From a virus (taxonomy: Duplodnaviria; Caudoviricetes): a stretch of DNA of 53,217 nt. Shown here one piece after another: positions 42,671-52,055 of the stretch (positions are counted from its first letter, which is position 1; every line of letters begins with the position of its first letter). The notes beneath the pieces are model-generated. The model was not told the origin of the DNA, made no database searches, and saw only the letters and a program-made list of their open reading frames with translations. The DNA lies in the IMG/VR virus record IMGVR_UViG_3300009548_000009, positions 1 through 53,217 of that record; one strand, written 5' to 3'. The position numbers and the translations under genes are program-made.

Positions 42671-43861
42671 CTACTCAAACGAAGACGAAACGCAGCCGTC
42701 CAGGAAGTAGCCAAGGTCTTGAGCAATAAGTTCCATGCCCATTGCCATCTCAGCTTCCATCCTCATGGCGCGTCTCCACTCCAGCCTAAAGTTCCTGACA
42801 GCGAACCAACCAGCTCCACCAGAGCCAACGATGTCCTGATACGGGCTGCCTGAGCTGAGGTAACCGTTCCATCCGAACATATACCCCGCAGAGGGAGTCA
42901 GTATTGAAGGGTTCGGGTTCGAGTAACAAAGGAGCGCGTCTTTACCGTAAGCGAATCCCATTGTTGGCGATGCCGATGCACCTTCCGCAGCAGTGTTGAC
43001 GACACACATCGGGATAATGACCCTGTCAACTGAAAATACTTGAGCAAGGGCCTGCTCCGAGATGACTGCCGGACTGCCTGGAGTTCCACCGTACTTAATC
43101 CTTTCCAGGATCTCAGGGTGAACAATCAGCGCCTCGTAGACTTCTGGTCCGATAACCAGGGTGTTCGGCACAAAGCCGGTTGCCATCGCCATCTCAAGTC
43201 TGTACTTTCGCACATCTTCAATAGGCGTTGAGTTTACCTGGTCGTCCCAGTAGACGAAGTCTTTCGTGGTCGCTACATACTCGGTGTTCGTTCCGCCGTC
43301 TACTTCGTTTGTCCACACAGAGTCGGTAAAGTAGTTCGTGACAAACTGCATCTCTCGTGCGAGGAGGAGCTTCTGTGTCAAGAACAGCGAAATATCCCGC
43401 TGCATGTTGAGCGGAGCGTCTGCGTTAGCTGCAACCATGTCACCGAGGTCAACGTGAAGGCCCCACACATCACAGATGTATGTGTTCGTCATGTCGAGCC
43501 CGTAGCCGGTTCCTGCCGTTTCCGCGCCGTCTAGTCTAACCTTAGCCTCATTCGTGAACCAGTAGTCTTTAGTGTACGAGACATAGTAATCCGACTTTTT
43601 CATTACAGGAATAAGCGGAAATATCTCGGCTGCCCTAAAGTTTTGCTGGCTCTGGATGTAGGCGATGCTGAACATCGTGTTTGGAACGTTAACGTGTACA
43701 TCGAACACAGTGGGCTGAGACTTCTTGAGTTGAACCTCATTTGGCATTGTCCATGCCTCATAAGGACTCTCAATATAGCCCGCCTTCGTGAGTCGCTGTG
43801 CGGCTCCATAGAGACCTAGGTTAGGTGTTGGCGAGGCAAAGTTTCTGAAATTTGTTGCCAT
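42671..43861 (-). CDS. Major capsid protein (HK97 fold, lambda gpE-like)
   Basis: SIAY.Q...F.A.EIFP..PV.K.SD.Y, W.D..NSTPIEDV, PNTLVIG..VYEAL..HP and PSAGY.F motifs; position. Confidence 0.92.
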   Translation of the reverse strand: MATNFRNFASPTPNLGLYGAAQRLTKAGYIESPYEAWTMPNEVQLKKSQPTVFDVHVNVPNTMFSIAYIQSQQNFRAAEIFPLIPVMKKSDYYVSYTKDYWFTNEAKVRLDGAETAGTGYGLDMTNTYICDVWGLHVDLGDMVAANADAPLNMQRDISLFLTQKLLLAREMQFVTNYFTDSVWTNEVDGGTNTEYVATTKDFVYWDDQVNSTPIEDVRKYRLEMAMATGFVPNTLVIGPEVYEALIVHPEILERIKYGGTPGSPAVISEQALAQVFSVDRVIIPMCVVNTAAEGASASPTMGFAYGKDALLCYSNPNPSILTPSAGYMFGWNGYLSSGSPYQDIVGSGGAGWFAVRNFRLEWRRAMRMEAEMAMGMELIAQDLGYFLDGCVSSSFE

Positions 43862-43873
43862 TTTCTTTTTTCC

Positions 43874-44695
43874 TCAGTTGTACTCGACGTACAGTGTTAT
43901 TGAGCCTGTATCCGAGCCGCCAAACGGCGTCGTGCCCTGCGTCACGTAAACGCTTATCTTGTTGGTCGGTGTAAACGAGCCTGCGGTTATAGTGCCTGCA
44001 TCGGACGTCATTACAGTACCGAAAGATTCAACGTGGGCTTTCGTTAGTTGCGTTACTGGTATTGAAAGCGTACCTATTGAAGTCGTGCCTGCTGAGCCTA
44101 GTAGGATTGTAAGCGCTGCAGATGCGCTCGTGGATGCCGAACAAACTGACGTTGCGACTGCGTATATATCAGAAACCGAGCCGGTAAATCCGAGTGGCAT
44201 TGCCTGATAAACGTAGCCGGTTGTAGCTAGTTTCGCGATAGGTATCTGGTACGGGAGCTGTCCTGCTCGTACCGTTGCGGACGCATTCGTGCGCGCCATC
44301 ATAGCGACTTCGTGAATCTCGCCGGTTCCACCAGAAACGTCTACCATAAACGCAACGATAACGTCAGAGCCTACAGTACCAGTACCGAGTCGCCCTGCCG
44401 TGTCGCCAAGCTTGAGGCCGTCGCCATGTGCGGGCGTGCTGAGCATAACTGCTTTGCTGTGTCCGAGTTCTCGCACAACGGCTATATCGCCAACTGGTGG
44501 ATCGTTTTGTAGTATTCCCCACACTCGGTTAGCTGGAACCGTCGCTGTGCTAGAAGGACCAACGCTGTTTCGCTGAGACGTTGACGCAAGATACATCAGA
44601 CCGTCGTTGCCCATTGCAACAGCACGGAATTGATATCCTGTTAAACTTTCGCCCGCGACATATGACATGTCGAGGACGGGTACATCTCCTGCCAT
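43874..44695 (-). CDS. Capsid cement/decoration protein with C-terminal extra domain
   Basis: AG..L...QFRAV...GILQN.P..G..A.V...G.SK (DUF2190-like); upstream of the MCP. Confidence 0.75.
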   Translation of the reverse strand: MAGDVPVLDMSYVAGESLTGYQFRAVAMGNDGLMYLASTSQRNSVGPSSTATVPANRVWGILQNDPPVGDIAVVRELGHSKAVMLSTPAHGDGLKLGDTAGRLGTGTVGSDVIVAFMVDVSGGTGEIHEVAMMARTNASATVRAGQLPYQIPIAKLATTGYVYQAMPLGFTGSVSDIYAVATSVCSASTSASAALTILLGSAGTTSIGTLSIPVTQLTKAHVESFGTVMTSDAGTITAGSFTPTNKISVYVTQGTTPFGGSDTGSITLYVEYN

Positions 44696-45721: not shown

Positions 45722-46225
45722 TCAGTTATTACGCTTAACGCGCACACCTGTTCCGTCGATGCTATATGCGCCGAACTCACCGCTCTGCGCACGCTTCCAA
45801 AGAGCATCGTTTATTGCGGTAAACAGCACCCAGGAGCCTTTTATTATATGTTCGCCATCGACGACCATATCAACGGGCGCGATGAAGCTCTCCACAGGCG
45901 TCGCCTCGGACTGACTCACCAGTTTTTCGTGGTGGGTTCCAATCCTGCTGCTGTTGGCGAGGTATTCGTGCGCAACCTTCCGCAATTCATCGGGACGTAT
46001 AAAGTCCCCTTGCGTGTCGGTCTTGCAGACATCGCCAGAGTTGCAGGGTTCGTAAACAACACCCCACACGAGATGGTCTGTCCCTTTCAACAGGCGGGCC
46101 GTGTAGTGCCAGGCCGCTGCTTGTTTTTCTATCGTTTCAAAATTCTTTTTTGAGTATTTAAGTATTGCTTGTACCTTTACAGGTGCTTGTACCTTTACAG
46201 GACGCCTTGCTAGTTTTTTCGGTAT
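45722..46225 (-). CDS. Prohead maturation protease domain, XkdF-like (frame open from 46225, no ATG upstream of the domain)
   Basis: VWGVVYEP, DTQGDF, H, VESFIAP, KGSWV and SGEFGAYSIDG. Confidence 0.88.
   Translation of the reverse strand: MPKKLARRPVKVQAPVKVQAILKYSKKNFETIEKQAAAWHYTARLLKGTDHLVWGVVYEPCNSGDVCKTDTQGDFIRPDELRKVAHEYLANSSRIGTHHEKLVSQSEATPVESFIAPVDMVVDGEHIIKGSWVLFTAINDALWKRAQSGEFGAYSIDGTGVRVKRNN
46166..46201. repeat. Perfect 18-bp tandem duplication (PVKVQA x2 in the protease frame)
   Basis: TGCTTGTACCTTTACAGG twice. Confidence 0.95.
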
Positions 46226-47508
46226 CTAGCTTCAAGAGCCTTTGACACCTGTAACCTTTTCCTTTGAAGCTCATCCTTTGTCCTCGGCGTGTATAATGAA
46301 TTAGGATGAGGCATCGTAAATTCAACGTCCCTTTCCAGTGCTTTCTTGACCGTGTGGCCCAGCGCGATTATCGGGATTTTGCGCTTAGACTTTGATCCGG
46401 CTTCTACTTTTGCCAGCTCATCCCTAAACCAGGGTTGCCACGATTCAATCTCATCAACTGTAGGTTCTCTGACTTTTCCGCTCTCGTCTTTGAGCAGTTG
46501 CGGCACGAGGTAAGTTATAACCACATTATCTCGCGTCAGTCCTAAAGGCGTTAGGTATTCGTCGTTGAATATCTTGCCAGTAGATCCTACTAACGCCGAT
46601 TTCCTGATTGACTCTACTTCTCCAGGTGAAGCTGCTACGAAGGTAAGAATGGGCCGCTTTCCGATGAAGGTTGGCACGTCAGATTTCTTAACGCTCTTCT
46701 TAGCCTTCTCCTTCAATTTCATGCAGTTGGTTTTCACCTTTTCACAATCCGCATCTGCCTCTTCAGCGGTTTCCTTCGCTATATTATCCGGTGCATCCTC
46801 GCCGATGTCCTTATAATACGACCGAAGCGTTGCTTTCATTGAATCCAACTCTGACGCTGGGATTCCACTAGATTGGTTGATCCTGCCGGCTGCAGCTGCG
46901 AGTCCTACCCTGCTTATCTGGAACTTGCCGTTGATTATGTCAGCTACTGGAAACTTGTAGCCGCCTGCGTTGTCTGCGTTGTCTGGGTCGTGATATAGGA
47001 ATCCTTTACCGTACTTCTGCCAGTCTACGTTTTCCTTATCTGGACCGCCTGCCCATGCTAAAAGCCTCTTTTGTGCAGCTCCAGCATCCCATGAGCCCGT
47101 AGAGGCTACAGGTGCGTCCTGCTTCCCATGTGCTGTCTTTTCCATTTTCTTGTTATCTCTACATTTTTGCGTGTCTTGTTCCTCGCACGCTCCGTCAGCT
47201 TTACCATCATCGTCGTCGTCTTCATCTACTCCAGATGGGAGTGGCTGTTTGTTAACCTCTGCGCTCACTTCTGCTTGTGTATCCTGTGCCTGGTGCGCTT
47301 CTGTGGCTGCCTGCGTGTCGGCAGATTGTGACTGCGCCTGCGCCGCTCGTGCCTTAGCGCTTGCCTTTCCACCAGCACGCGGCAGGGCCTTTCTGTGTAG
47401 ATCATTCATTACGTGCGGAGGAACATACTGCCGCACTGCGTCAAGTAGTTCACTTATGTATTCCGGTGAATACTCCTTTTGTTTCGCTTCCTTTTCTAAA
47501 TCATCCAT
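46210..47508 (-). CDS. Multidomain head-module protein: low-complexity N-terminus, phage head-associated domain, UDG-family-4-like domain
   Basis: WDAGAA.KR...GYKFPVADII.G domain; then FVAASPG..E.....LVGSTGK...GLTRDNVVIT...REPT.DEI...IIALG...PHP. Confidence 0.75.
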   Translation of the reverse strand: MDDLEKEAKQKEYSPEYISELLDAVRQYVPPHVMNDLHRKALPRAGGKASAKARAAQAQSQSADTQAATEAHQAQDTQAEVSAEVNKQPLPSGVDEDDDDDGKADGACEEQDTQKCRDNKKMEKTAHGKQDAPVASTGSWDAGAAQKRLLAWAGGPDKENVDWQKYGKGFLYHDPDNADNAGGYKFPVADIINGKFQISRVGLAAAAGRINQSSGIPASELDSMKATLRSYYKDIGEDAPDNIAKETAEEADADCEKVKTNCMKLKEKAKKSVKKSDVPTFIGKRPILTFVAASPGEVESIRKSALVGSTGKIFNDEYLTPLGLTRDNVVITYLVPQLLKDESGKVREPTVDEIESWQPWFRDELAKVEAGSKSKRKIPIIALGHTVKKALERDVEFTMPHPNSLYTPRTKDELQRKRLQVSKALEARYRKN

Positions 47509-47554: not shown

Positions 47555-48526
47555 TCAAACATAAAATGGCCTGAACGTTACCGTAAATTCTGTTATTCCT
47601 TCCTCATCAACCCCCATAGTTATAAAATGATAACCAGTATGATTGGCCAACCGCTTGCTTCGCATCCATCTGGATTGTGTCGATAGCGCCCCGCCGCTTA
47701 CAGCATGGATATGGCGTTCAAAGAAATACCCCTGTTTGTGGCTATGTCCCATAAGCAAGACATGCGGTTTTTCTCCTCCGGTGAAGGATTCGATGAGTTT
47801 CTGAACCCGATATGATGTAGCATAACTTGATCCGTCCTCCCCGTGAAAAACACGTATCAATACCCCACTAATTTCTATATCGCCTTCATCACGCCCGATA
47901 TACTCCATATTTGGGACAGACTCACATACATCTTCTACGATGTTCGCGCCCATTGCTTCATACCACCTGTCATGATTGCCAGAGATCAGATACGTATGAA
48001 ACGGTATTTTTGATAGTTGTTCTTCAGCGTACGCTTTCTGTGCTGCGTACCCAATATCTCTTAATTCATAAATTAAATTATATTTTCTTGGGTCCATCCC
48101 ATGTGTAAGGTCCCCGCCAAATATGCAAAACTGAGCCTTTCGTTTTTTGCATGTTTGTATAAAATCATCCAAGAACTCCTCGTGATAATAGATGCTTGAC
48201 ATATGGGCGTCAGTAAAGTACCCAAAGCGTATTTCCTCTCCTGAATGGCCTATCTTTACTTTTGGGGGCGTTACAGAGAATGAGCCAAGACCTTTACCCT
48301 TGCTTATTGCCGCTAGTTCTTCAGCGGTGTATTTGCCGTGGATTCCTTCTAGGTAACGGACCCCCCGTTTTCTTTGCCTAAAGCTCCGCGTCCATTCGTT
48401 TTTGTACTCACGCTCTTTTTCTCGGTTCTCTACACGATACAATCTACATGCTTCTCGGCACGCATCGCACGTTTTAAACCCACCTGACTCGATCGGTTTA
48501 TTGCAGCGGGAGCAATGTTCTGTCAT
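47555..48526 (-). CDS. Calcineurin-like metallophosphoesterase with N-terminal Zn finger
   Basis: DAH, GGD, GNHD, FHG and GHSH motifs; CSRC...CDAC. Confidence 0.9.
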   Translation of the reverse strand: MTEHCSRCNKPIESGGFKTCDACREACRLYRVENREKEREYKNEWTRSFRQRKRGVRYLEGIHGKYTAEELAAISKGKGLGSFSVTPPKVKIGHSGEEIRFGYFTDAHMSSIYYHEEFLDDFIQTCKKRKAQFCIFGGDLTHGMDPRKYNLIYELRDIGYAAQKAYAEEQLSKIPFHTYLISGNHDRWYEAMGANIVEDVCESVPNMEYIGRDEGDIEISGVLIRVFHGEDGSSYATSYRVQKLIESFTGGEKPHVLLMGHSHKQGYFFERHIHAVSGGALSTQSRWMRSKRLANHTGYHFITMGVDEEGITEFTVTFRPFYV

Positions 48527-48775: not shown

Positions 48776-50269
48776 TTATTCCATCCGACACCCTACATAC
48801 CCATCTGGTTTTTCTCCCCACCAACGACGCCACTGTTCGCCATGCTCCCTTAATTGATTAAATATCTCATCTTCTGTGAGGGCGTTATACTTACGTCGGA
48901 CTTCTTCCACTCCTGGTAGTTTTGATGCTTTCATTATAAAATCTAACGCGAAGTCTCGTTCTTCCGTCGTTGGATCTTTAAAGCAAATGATAAAGTTGCC
49001 AGTATTCATTAACTTTATCTGACCATCCCCATCAGAAGGAAGTTTCTTTTGTTCAGATATTACAGTAATTGACATTATCTTCCCTTCTTAATCGGCCTCT
49101 GCGGTTTCTTTGATGCAGCCACTCTGAAGAAATCAGCCTCGCTCATTGGCTGGCCGCCTACAGTAAACCCCTCGCCCTCTGCTATCGCTCCAAGCTTCGG
49201 AAGTATCGGGAGTGGTTTATCGTGGAGCATGCTCGCTGGGTTTGATGAAGTCATTGCCTGCCTGCGCTGGTTTAAGCGGCTTAGGTTCTTAATCAACTCA
49301 TCATCAGGCTCTTGCCTTTCTGGTCTGGGAATGTCAACCAACATCGCTTTTCGTATATCGTTGTTACGTTCCATCTCCTCGTCGTGGAGCGTTAACAGAT
49401 AATCAAGCGCCGTATCGTCGTTTATTGGCATCTTTGAGTAGACTGCTTTCTCGGCAGCCGTTACGCCTGGCCGGTTAAGCAAAGAAGAACGCATGCCTTC
49501 TAGCATCGTGTGCCAGTGGACGAGTAAATCTCCAGTTATTTTTAATGTGATCGGTTTGAACGTGCGACGTTTTGCCGCCTTCTCCATCTTCTTAGTAGCT
49601 TCCTCAATAATCTTTAGGTCTGCCTCCTCTTTGAGTGCAGCAAAAGCATCTATTGGCGGTGGTGGTTCTTTCACCATACGCTGAAGAAAGTCGCCTACTA
49701 AAGACTTCTCACTCACTTCTGGTTCTGGTTCAATCCCTTGCACTACGTCAATGACTATCTCTTCTTTAGGTTCAGGTTTAACTTCGGGTTTAACTTCAGG
49801 CTTAGGTTTCGTTGCTTTCTTTTTTGGCATTAGTTCCTCCTAGGTTAAAAGTGGAATACAAAGTGCGCTATGAGTATCCAGAGTATCGGATACACGAAGA
49901 TCATGAACAGCGCAAATAGCGTATTTCTGGTTTGGTTCTCTGGTTGTTCTGGTAACCCTTTTTTTCTCTCTCCAAGTAGCATTTCAAATCCTTCCTTCTC
50001 TGAATCAGTGAGCGGTCGCGTTGCGTCTCCGTCCTTTATGACTGATATATCTATCAGGTCTTTTGTGTTTACTAGGACCCTATGAAGTGACTCAAGGTTG
50101 ATAGTTTCTCCAAATTCGTTTTTCATCTTAACTTCAGCTCCCGAAACGGGCAGTTATTTACATGCATCTTTAAATCCCGTTTCAGCTCCTTTACTTCGTT
50201 TTCAAGTTTTAAGAGCACCTGTTGCATCTCCATTTCGGTAAGAAGGTTAGCTGCTTTATTAGTGGGCAT
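48776..50269 (-). CDS. Four hypothetical ORFs (48776-49075; 49075-49830; 49845-50126 with C-terminal TM; 50123-50269)
   Basis: Coupled minus-strand ORFs downstream of the portal. Confidence 0.65.
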
Positions 50270-52055
50270 TTTTCTTTTTCTTCTTTTTCTTAGGTTGTGT
50301 TTGTTCTAAGCCCTGGACATATGCAATACTAAAATCCTCATTGGGCCGGTTTACGTGGACATCTAAAACCGTCGGCTGGCTCTTTTTAGCTGGCAGCGGT
50401 TTGCCCCATGTATCTGTTTGTCCACGATACGGCGTCTCCTCGTTTATCGGCTGAGATCGTTCTCGAGCTGCAGCTGCAGTCTGCCCAGGCAGCAACGAAT
50501 CTACCGGCGTGGCCAATGGGCTTTCCGGTTCCGGTTCCTTTGGCAAGTGTATCAGATCCCATAGGGCGTTTCTAAACGTCACGTCATCTGGGATTGGCAC
50601 TCCGCCCCGGGCGACGTTGCTTAGGAATGTACCCACGTCATTGATCTCTGCGCTTGCTACGTCGCCATGCACAAGTTTAGGCAATGATTCGGGGTTTATA
50701 TCAGGATTGAGTTGCGCGAGTCGTGGAACAGCGTATGAGTTGAATACCTGGCAAATTGAATCCAATATCGCGCTTATTGAAATTGAAAAGAGATTATTTC
50801 TTGTTTCAGCAAGGGCGTATGATCCTGTCGTATCCTGGCCAAGCATAAGAAAATCAGCAAGGACAGTCATTGCTATCCATTTGCTAAACATCTGGATTAT
50901 GCCAACAATGTCAAACTGTCTTTGTGACTGCGGACCTGCTAGTTCTAAACTATACATTGGGCCGCCGCCTACATCAGAAGGATAATTGTTTGATGGTAGA
51001 AGTATGCCTTCGTCTTGGTTTCGCTTGAGATTGCGAACTATCCGTTTTAACATCTCTGCCATTGCTGATGAACGTGCATCGACTCCGGTTAGTACCTCAC
51101 CAGGAGCACGCAAGACAGGAACGCCTGCCATATCACGTTCTAGTCCTGTCATCATAATCTCTTCAGCCAGCTTTTTGAACATATATGTTCTATATGCCCC
51201 ACGCAAAAGACTCACACCTTCTGGGTTGCCCTTTCGAGGTTTAACTCGGAACAATAACAGTTTCTCTATCGGTATTTCAGTAATCCTAAAGTGAGGTGGA
51301 GCAAGTTGTCTGAATCCTCGTATGCCGCCGTTAACGTCAAAGTCCCAGTTTAATAGTGTTTCCTGGGCCCTAGTAGCAAACTTCCTCCAGCCTATTCTCC
51401 CATCATCAAAGTTGCTATTTAATGTCGGATCTTCTGGATGTGGCCCCTCTCGTTTCTTATAGACTATTTCTGAGATATGATAACCGAAGATAAACATGCT
51501 AAGAACCTCAGAAAGCAGATCATTTGGATTAACACTCATATCCTCCCAGCATTGTTGGTAAAATTCCAATGCTTTTAAGTCCTCAGGAGTAGAACCGTCA
51601 GTTTCCCACCAGAGGTTTACTGATCTGCATGACATCTCGACCGCATAAAAGATTGATGATATGACGGCATCCATCATGTACATCTCTTTGTACATACGGA
51701 CGCCGCGAGTGTATTGAAGTTCAGTCAGCCACTCCTCATACACGTAGGGAGGAATGTACATTAAGCCGGTCGTGCCGTACTCTGCGAAGTAGTTGAGGTT
51801 AACCGGAGCACCAGGTGACGAGGGGCCTATTCCCATGAGGTCGCCTGAGCCGAGCGTGGGCAAGCCCTGGGCAGTGAACGGCATCTCTTGTAAATCAATA
51901 AGTTTCTTTATGGTTGCCTGTTCAGACTTGGACAGCTTTTCAAACGCTGCGCTTTCTGATTCAGTAAATGATGTTATTCCGTTCGGGGGACTTTCGGGAA
52001 ATGAGGTTATCCCGTTCGGTTCCGTATTATTTTTCTTTATATTTTTTCGAGCCAT
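50259..52055 (-). CDS. Portal protein (Mu gp29/DUF935-like)
   Basis: Y.EM...D..I, GYHISEIVYK, GNPEGVSLLR.AY, ERD.AGVPV, GSYALA and VPRL..LN; follows the terminase nuclease. Confidence 0.92.
   Translation of the reverse strand: MARKNIKKNNTEPNGITSFPESPPNGITSFTESESAAFEKLSKSEQATIKKLIDLQEMPFTAQGLPTLGSGDLMGIGPSSPGAPVNLNYFAEYGTTGLMYIPPYVYEEWLTELQYTRGVRMYKEMYMMDAVISSIFYAVEMSCRSVNLWWETDGSTPEDLKALEFYQQCWEDMSVNPNDLLSEVLSMFIFGYHISEIVYKKREGPHPEDPTLNSNFDDGRIGWRKFATRAQETLLNWDFDVNGGIRGFRQLAPPHFRITEIPIEKLLLFRVKPRKGNPEGVSLLRGAYRTYMFKKLAEEIMMTGLERDMAGVPVLRAPGEVLTGVDARSSAMAEMLKRIVRNLKRNQDEGILLPSNNYPSDVGGGPMYSLELAGPQSQRQFDIVGIIQMFSKWIAMTVLADFLMLGQDTTGSYALAETRNNLFSISISAILDSICQVFNSYAVPRLAQLNPDINPESLPKLVHGDVASAEINDVGTFLSNVARGGVPIPDDVTFRNALWDLIHLPKEPEPESPLATPVDSLLPGQTAAAARERSQPINEETPYRGQTDTWGKPLPAKKSQPTVLDVHVNRPNEDFSIAYVQGLEQTQPKKKKKKKNAH

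Follow-up and report, generated by a model that had tools for sequence, protein, structure and literature searches.

The analysis of a tailed phage genome (Caudoviricetes) held as IMG/VR record IMGVR_UViG_3300009548_000009 reveals that the C-terminus of its portal protein is a conserved copy of the N-terminal arm of its major capsid protein (MCP), followed by a run of lysines. All 53,217 nucleotides of the record, hereafter the window, were analyzed; the window is the whole of that record, put at 93% complete by the record's own estimate. The copied peptide has the appearance of an address or processing label that can be reused in capsid assembly, and we give an even chance to its being a modular tag for head assembly and maturation, in which docking by mimicry of the coat arm would be combined with probable processing by the head protease. 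An original prediction, made from the letters of the window, had noticed the copy and explained it as the portal imitating the N-arms of the penton that it replaces.

The match between the two proteins is close at the level of residues. Portal residues 557 to 581 and MCP residues 46 to 70 (Table 1) are identical at 20 of 25 positions, and 14 of these 20 identical residues differ in codon, including AGC against TCT for serine, with 49 of the 75 bases identical. When the portal sequence was shuffled 200 times, the closest ungapped stretch of 25 residues had 7 to 10 identities, and a BLASTP comparison of portal and MCP gave an E-value of 2e-10 (27 of 56 residues identical, portal 528-581 against MCP 19-70). 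The part of this alignment preceding the motif (portal 528-556, MCP 19-45) was set aside as unproven, being weak and seen only in the window and its closest relative (L003), not in the other genomes of their clade. Both genes lie on the minus strand, and a plus-strand reading of 50313-50387 and 43652-43726 was rejected, since for minus-strand genes it yields a meaningless translation. Beyond the portal and MCP copies, no further copy was found in the whole window. A word-index search with portal residues 520-598 matched a single protein and was uninformative. The coordinates, the number of identities and the codon differences in the original prediction were all reproduced.

The copied motif is ancient in the MCP family, where it forms the N-terminus. 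In an alignment of the window MCP with 117 homologues (118 sequences), the consensus start reads MPQPTxxDVHVNxPLTNISIAYIQ, and the MCPs of the cultivated phages KPP23 and RDJL Phi 1 begin with the same motif; the portal copy is therefore the derived one. The motif was absent from the N-terminus of the 9NA MCP, and the R4C roseophage proved to have another type of MCP. In the AlphaFold2 (AF2) model of the window MCP, which has a confident core (mean pLDDT 83.3, pTM 0.76), residues 41-70 form coil with pLDDT values of 52, 55 and 64 in blocks of 10 residues, followed by values of at least 87 up to residue 140; a low-confidence helix is modeled at residues 15-26. The unpacked state of residues 41-70 in this monomer model suits an arm that orders only with a partner. 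In lambda and BPP-1, the N-arm strand forms a sheet with the E-loop of a neighboring subunit and the decoration protein (PMC5701804). A sequence search of the PDB returned no assembled capsid of this MCP family, the sole solved relative being 3BJQ (profile E 1.1e-26).

The origin of the portal copy was examined across 26 IMG/VR loci whose portals are 54-100% identical to that of the window, 25 of them with the portal C-terminus on the contig. The full motif is present in 16 of the 25, the first half only (QPSAGDVHV[ND]AP) in three and no motif in six; moreover, a polybasic run follows the motif in every full- and half-motif portal. In the portal tree, the full-motif portals, including that of the window, form one clade (clade A, support 100/100), its sister group is made up of portals with the first half only (clade B) or no motif (clade C), and seven outgroup portals are motif-free. 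Given this single full-motif clade, mixed sister group and motif-free outgroup, the comparison fits a copy gained once in a small uncultivated clade and then truncated and lost. The tail itself has a regular order, in which a conserved DSLLPGQ..RER.Q.NEETP segment is followed by a linker of variable length, the motif, Q-G and the poly-Lys run. The linker (residues 505-556) contains 19% proline, against 7.7% for the entire portal, and it lies past the part that matches solved portals (11bp/9zbs, E 3e-53, residues 80-529), in agreement with the proline-rich flexible tether that had been proposed. For the homologous P7-1 portal, no density was reported for the final 25 residues (PMC12697256). Two variants of the tail were observed among the relatives. 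One subclade (L012 11591-11782; L014 6343-6528) has an amphipathic helix-like stretch past the poly-Lys run (VQKIQSLEQRVATLEKMLTEA), and a no-motif portal of 619 aa (L018 139-1995) ends instead in an unrelated domain (…PNEHAARIRDPSEF…), some 100 residues long, that matched no family.

The portal copy is old and under selection at the protein level, as the original prediction had it. The proportions of nonsynonymous and synonymous differences (pN and pS) between the window copy and orthologous portal copies are 0.20-0.27 and 0.63-1.09, a pN/pS of about 0.2-0.4 with saturated synonymous sites; the selection is seen across relatives, and the MCP copies are tighter still (pN 0.04-0.14). The invariant positions of the tag are K, P, DVHV, P, S, A, Y and G. 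A peptide missing from related portals, or drifting in them, was to count against the original prediction; it is truncated in three and absent from six, yet it does not drift, pN lying well below pS. These observations bear on the idea that the copy is a functionless scar of neutral recombination or duplication, which we regard as very improbable: its truncation or loss in sister lineages would be expected of a scar, but the peptide is kept despite saturated synonymous sites, the flanking linker drifts freely and similar tags occur on unrelated proteins.

The recurrence of the tag on other head proteins was established in two ways. First, a profile of the portal tag was run against 1.84 billion representative proteins and returned 34 matches, consisting of 2 portal fragments, 30 MCP-N-terminus-like proteins, 1 chance-like repeat protein and the protein P0150. 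The 30 matches lie at protein residues 3-43, as expected of MCP N-termini (nine of them were read). P0150 has a LigT-like domain followed by SSDVHVDTPSDEISVAGLDGEQKKRKRK and an XkdF domain, and its cassette shares 15 of 25 residues with that of a portal, I-x-K-x-x-P among them. The repeat protein (P0131, 3442 aa, with an immunoglobulin-like C-terminus and KPQVADVHVAEAPEE repeated 14 times) was judged a chance match. Second, a census was made of the best 80 of 581 MCP loci, which were fetched, giving 128 sources and 12,853 open reading frames (ORFs) overall; its counts are counts of sequences and not of independent events, because the loci include near-duplicates. The pattern P.{4}[VI]H[VI][NDS] had 128 matches among these ORFs, against 6 in reversed decoys, with 90 at MCP N-termini and 38 elsewhere. 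The 38 reduce to 28 distinct sequences, namely XkdF-domain ORFs (13), portals (10, all in the clade of the window), a Zeta_toxin protein (1), a fragment (1) and chance-like matches (3). A pattern for the second half of the motif (FS[IV]AY.Q) had 112 matches and none in decoys, and its sole occurrences outside MCPs were in clade-A portals and in one MuF-like protein, at the C-terminus.

The bearers of these tags are for the most part XkdF-domain proteins. Pfam analysis of nine tag-bearing proteins found PF14550 in seven, the remaining two having Zeta_toxin and Phage_Mu_F, and 17 of the 68 XkdF ORFs are tagged, C-terminal of the domain in 13 and N-terminal in 4; examples are ...DPTVSDVHVDTIMNPKKKKPK at a C-terminus and ChaB-KESPTSDSVHVNVPLGEDKKK-XkdF. 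Specifically, in three loci (L032-L034) a 465-aa XkdF protein carries SPTPSDVHVS, the N-terminus of its own MCP (10 of 10 residues in L034). The Zeta_toxin protein (L124 4949-7663, 905 aa) combines Hva1_TUDOR and Zeta_toxin (P-loop kinase) domains with a tag and polybasic run near residue 143 and is a candidate packaged or ejected protein. A polybasic run lies within 22-25 residues of the tag in 20 of 25 credible distinct tags, that of the window beginning just past this span. Laroye-type Arthrobacter phages have LigT-like and XkdF fusions, and no tag was found in the LigT-like/XkdF protein of Waltz. Thus multiple head-interior proteins of one phage group share the tag, although in the window itself only the portal has it, and its presence on XkdF, MuF-like and Zeta-toxin-domain proteins points to a general head-interior tag rather than a portal-specific one.

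This distribution alters the explanation first offered for the copy. According to that explanation, twelve portal tails would give N-arm strands to the five hexamers surrounding the portal and thereby lock the portal in place or nucleate the shell. The clade-A copy does hold both halves of the arm and is under selection, the tether of about 50 residues would by its presumed geometry be long enough to reach the shell, and the lambda-type arm binds the E-loop of a neighbor, a contact that would be vacant beside the missing penton (PMC5701804). Nevertheless, the same kind of tag occurs on XkdF, MuF-like and cargo-like proteins, which have no vertex to fill; clade B keeps the first half only and clade C nothing; all portals of at most 43% identity are tag-free although their MCPs have the arm; and twelve tails would face five or ten sites. 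With the tag on non-portal proteins and lost or truncated in sister portals, penton mimicry is not supported as stated, its logic being specific to the portal vertex, and we consider it improbable on its own, though it is possible as a special case of the general tag.

The tags also follow the subtype of the cognate MCP. An MCP with VH[VI]DAIL is paired with a tag reading VH[VI]DTIM or VHVDAIM, one with SVHVNAPL with a tag reading SVHVN[RV]P[LM], and in clade A the usual Leu after Pro is replaced by Asn, Ser or Thr in MCP and portal alike. This tracking is further quantified by the summed BLOSUM score of 18 distinct tag-MCP pairs, drawn from lineages that share ancestry, which is 776; shuffling the pairings gave 596 +/- 36, and 0 of 5000 shuffles came up to 776.

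A candidate cleavage site accompanies the motif, and a candidate protease is encoded nearby. The window has a gene for an XkdF-type putative prohead serine protease in the head module, directly upstream of the acidic scaffold-like gene, and both its PF14550 profile match and its candidate catalytic residues support the assignment; across 18 relatives Asp25 and Ser110 do not vary, and His54 hardly does. Lys occupies position -3 relative to the motif Pro in 16 of 23 distinct non-MCP tags and is found at -1, -2 or -5 in none of the 23, position -5 being mostly hydrophobic; in the window portal this residue is K558, at -3 relative to Pro561. The N-extended MCPs seen all conform to [ILF]-x-K-[SA]-[QG]-P-[ST]. 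Among 70 distinct MCP N-terminal contexts, 61 have Met no more than five residues from the motif Pro, typically as M-P-Q-P-T. Because the -3 Lys of the tags and extended MCPs coincides in place with the initiator Met of MCPs that lack an extension, the comparison suggests a shared cleavage site at this Lys, and a cut after it would leave an N-terminus in register with the Met-processed MCP. The shared KK/S site proposed in the original prediction thereby gains support, though from the comparison of sequences only. No mechanistic work on XkdF/PF14550 was present among the top-ranked literature matches listed.

The extension that such a cut would remove is itself a feature of the clade. The clade-A MCPs have 45-60 residues ahead of the motif; a few other lineages have shorter extensions. 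In the window and L003 this stretch is translated and under constraint, with a pN of 0.07 and a pS of 0.81 between the two. Within it, a conserved EAWTMP (43745-43770, minus strand) encodes GAGG 8 bases upstream of an in-frame ATG (Met39), which could be a second start giving an MCP isoform with a short extension (MPNEVQLKKSQPTV...).

The same regularity raises the question of whether the motif is a mere substrate-recognition sequence of the XkdF-type protease, at which the MCP, the linkers of the protease itself and the portal tail would all be cut, with the portal cut shedding a polybasic anchor after assembly and no docking being involved. Several observations agree with this: the tags occupy linkers that adjoin the XkdF domain on one side or the other and separate the protease from ChaB, LigT-like, UDG or DUF5824 domains, where self-processing sites would be expected; [hydrophobic]-x-K stands ahead of the motif both in the tags and in every N-extended MCP seen; most tags retain the first half of the motif alone; and the window has the protease gene. 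However, 61 of the 70 MCP contexts have nothing upstream to remove, yet the tags of those lineages copy the MCP subtype, and clade-A portals, like the MuF-like C-terminus, keep the second half, which lies 10-20 residues away from where the cut is presumed. In addition, XkdF is a putative protease only. Overall, we judge protease recognition by itself to be rather unlikely.

Under the modular tag reading, the last 42 residues of the portal would form a cassette made up of a Lys site, the copy of the MCP N-arm and the polybasic run, carried on a disordered tether of about 50 residues past the part that resembles solved portals. Proteins bound for the head interior in phages with this MCP family would carry a copy of the cognate MCP N-terminus, the bearers being XkdF proteins with or without fused enzymes, a MuF-like protein, the Zeta-toxin-domain protein and, in this clade, the portal. 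The tag would be recognized by whatever recognizes the MCP N-arm during head assembly, for which the arm-binding site of a neighboring coat subunit or the scaffold are candidates, and this recognition would link the portal to the shell or core as it grows. The head protease would then cut at the -3 Lys, stripping the 47-residue extension from the MCP and freeing or exposing the cassette in the portal, with a new N-terminus in the register of the Met-processed MCP. A combination with docking as its core is favored over protease recognition alone because lineages whose MCP needs no cut still have tags that copy its subtype, and because clade-A portals and the MuF-like protein preserve the second half of the arm well away from the presumed cut. 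We propose only tentatively, and with some doubt, that the tag amounts, in this large family of phages, to a self-mimicry code for cargo loading that evolves along with the coat protein, and in which the coat-arm copy, exposed by the cut after Lys, would make the shell or core accept its bearer as a coat subunit, the portal of this clade being likewise built in or nucleating.

Several points weigh against the modular tag. With regard to mechanism, the docking site is not obvious, because the arm sites of the assembled shell should already hold coat arms, and by analogy with lambda and BPP-1 an interior tail might not reach the place of the arm at the E-loop and decoration protein. The role of the poly-Lys run is left unexplained by the cassette model, and since most MCPs begin at the motif and need no cut, cleavage alone cannot explain the match between tag and MCP. 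With regard to distribution, 51 of the 68 XkdF ORFs are untagged, including that of the window; the tag is dispensable in evolution, as its absence from the six clade-C portals attests; the motif was found in none of the 16 portals of 33-43% identity from the profile scan that have the C-terminus on the contig, even though their MCPs do have it where the MCP is present; and the portals of KPP23, RDJL Phi 1 and Waltz are without it. Moreover, within clade A, pairing the portal and MCP copies by genome brings no closer match than pairing them across genomes, so that gene conversion between the two was rejected and fine co-variation is not seen there. The co-variation that had been put forward as a check on the original prediction is thus missing within clade A and present as subtype tracking between lineages only, which share ancestry and whose loci are not independent. 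A complex prediction of MCP 71-396 and of the XkdF domain with the portal tag gave scores of 0.00 and 0.01, without controls, and lends support to neither side.

Comparison with known systems places the tag among head-targeting peptides with several distinguishing features. In the capsid targeting sequence (CTS) of T4 and the DarB signal of P1, a short terminal peptide suffices for prohead entry, and in T4 it also permits proteolytic processing (PMC9024508, citing Mullaney and Black 1996). The tags found here resemble these signals in being on expected head-interior proteins with a candidate cleavage site; they differ in copying and tracking the cognate MCP N-terminus, in the polybasic run that usually follows, in being N-terminal, internal or C-terminal, in occurring also on a portal and in being known from sequence alone. 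We know of no indication that the T4 CTS or P1 DarB signals are copies of a coat protein terminus. Shell-binding tails are likewise found in the encapsidation signal of the HK97 protease, the common C-terminus of lambda gpC and gpNu3 and the herpesvirus protease-scaffold tail with its M-site cut, and these tie the protease to the shell and are severed at maturation. The C-terminal tag of 13 of the 17 tagged XkdF ORFs is similar in placement; to our knowledge, such protease and scaffold tails are not coat N-arm copies and none has been reported on a portal. Encapsulin cargo-loading peptides, borne on flexible linkers, address cargo to the inner face of an HK97-fold shell; unlike these peptides, which are not known to be related to the shell sequence, the tag is the shell protein's own arm, and the shell is a phage head with portal, scaffold and protease. 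Finally, the capsid and scaffold proteins of phage 80alpha have a common N-terminal motif, copied from ribosomal protein L27 and cut by the host Prp protease. As in 80alpha, where one protease processes both, the same motif stands on different head proteins; in contrast to the short N-terminal motif of 80alpha, it comprises 12-25 residues, is C-terminal in the portal and derives from the MCP. None of the systems compared is, as far as we know, a coat-terminus copy or portal-borne.

The mismatch between portal and shell offers a further comparison, as flexible elements bridge the 12-fold portal and 5-fold vertex in HK97 and P7-1 in the way that the proposed tail would. In the HK97 procapsid, the adapting element is the MCP scaffold domain and not a portal tail (PMC10275583). 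The portal of P7-1, which among solved structures is the closest relative (E 3e-53), has 479 aa and no such cassette (PMC12697256). The original prediction knew of no described example of such a portal copy, and no description was found among the top-ranked full-text literature matches listed, supplementary files being outside the scope of the search.

How the 12-fold portal, the protease and cargo are recruited into the growing shell is still open for most phages. If correct, the modular tag would provide a simple and testable recruitment rule for a widespread and mostly uncultivated phage group; it would predict packaging of UDG-like, LigT-like, ChaB and Zeta-toxin-domain proteins in the head and would offer a short peptide for loading chosen proteins into phage capsids. 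If the motif were a protease site only, it would be the first substrate motif for the uncharacterized XkdF protease family.

Table 1. Features of the window that bear on the portal tag and the head module.
Feature	Coordinates	Strand	Basis or remark
Portal gene, 598 aa, Mu-type	50259..52055	-	PF06074, 99.5 bits (cut-off 23.9); phrog_113, E 1.3e-70; member of the Mu-type portals
Portal C-terminal linker, residues 505-556	50388..50543	-	Pro-rich; indel-rich among relatives
MCP-N-terminus-like tag, portal residues 557-581, KKSQPTVLDVHVNRPNEDFSIAYVQ	50313..50387	-	20/25 match to MCP
Poly-Lys run K589-K595, close to portal C-terminus	50271..50291	-	Translation of ORF
MCP gene, 396 aa	42671..43861	-	phrog_1005, E 6.6e-64; PF03864, 24.8 bits (just over cut-off 22.9)
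MCP N-terminal extension, residues 1-47, ending L-K-K47	43721..43861	-	Ahead of motif; clade feature
Original motif, MCP residues 46-70, KKSQPTVFDVHVNVPNTMFSIAYIQ	43652..43726	-	Conserved N-terminal arm of the family
XkdF-type putative prohead serine protease ORF, 122 aa, TTG start	45722..46090	-	PF14550, 89 bits (cut-off 24); phrog_3017, E 5.4e-28
Scaffold-like acidic protein, 335 aa	44697..45704	-	N-terminal VHLVTRGAN strand motif and D/E tract; function from position and composition only
273-aa ORF between scaffold-like and MCP genes	43874..44695	-	Candidate decoration protein from gene order alone

The neighboring genes of the head module add observations on the proteins discussed above. 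The scaffold-like protein begins with a strand-like motif (ESVHLVTRGANQ), and [VI][SHA][LFI][VI]..[GP]AN is common to 26 scaffold-like ORFs adjoining XkdF genes; this motif might complete or bind the XkdF domain. Its acidic tract contains 15 D/E in 20 residues and might bind the poly-Lys tails. The 273-aa ORF, which had no match in Pfam or PHROG, occupies what we take to be the place of lambda gpD, and KPP23 and 9NA have virion proteins of 133-136 aa in the same place; as a candidate decoration protein, it could pair with the MCP arm.

Enzyme domains recur beside XkdF. A 432-aa ORF with a UDG-superfamily domain (46210-47508, minus strand) lies directly upstream of the XkdF ORF of the window in a different frame, and in L065 (6979-8457) a single 493-aa protein has the order UDG, tag, polybasic run and XkdF. 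Fusions of the XkdF domain to ChaB, LigT-like and DUF5824 domains were observed in other loci. Given this UDG neighbor and fusion and the ChaB, LigT-like and DUF5824 fusions, the gene arrangement suggests that XkdF carries enzymes into the head.

Two further features concern the surroundings of the portal. A calcineurin-like metallophosphoesterase or exonuclease gene (47555-48526, minus strand) is located among the head genes, with the portal gene on one side and the protease gene on the other. In five related loci (L023, 9866-12661; L024, L025, L026 and L030), the portal ORF reaches about 900 aa through an intein with a LAGLIDADG-type endonuclease, inserted near portal residues 195-290 (PF14890 and PF14528 in L023).

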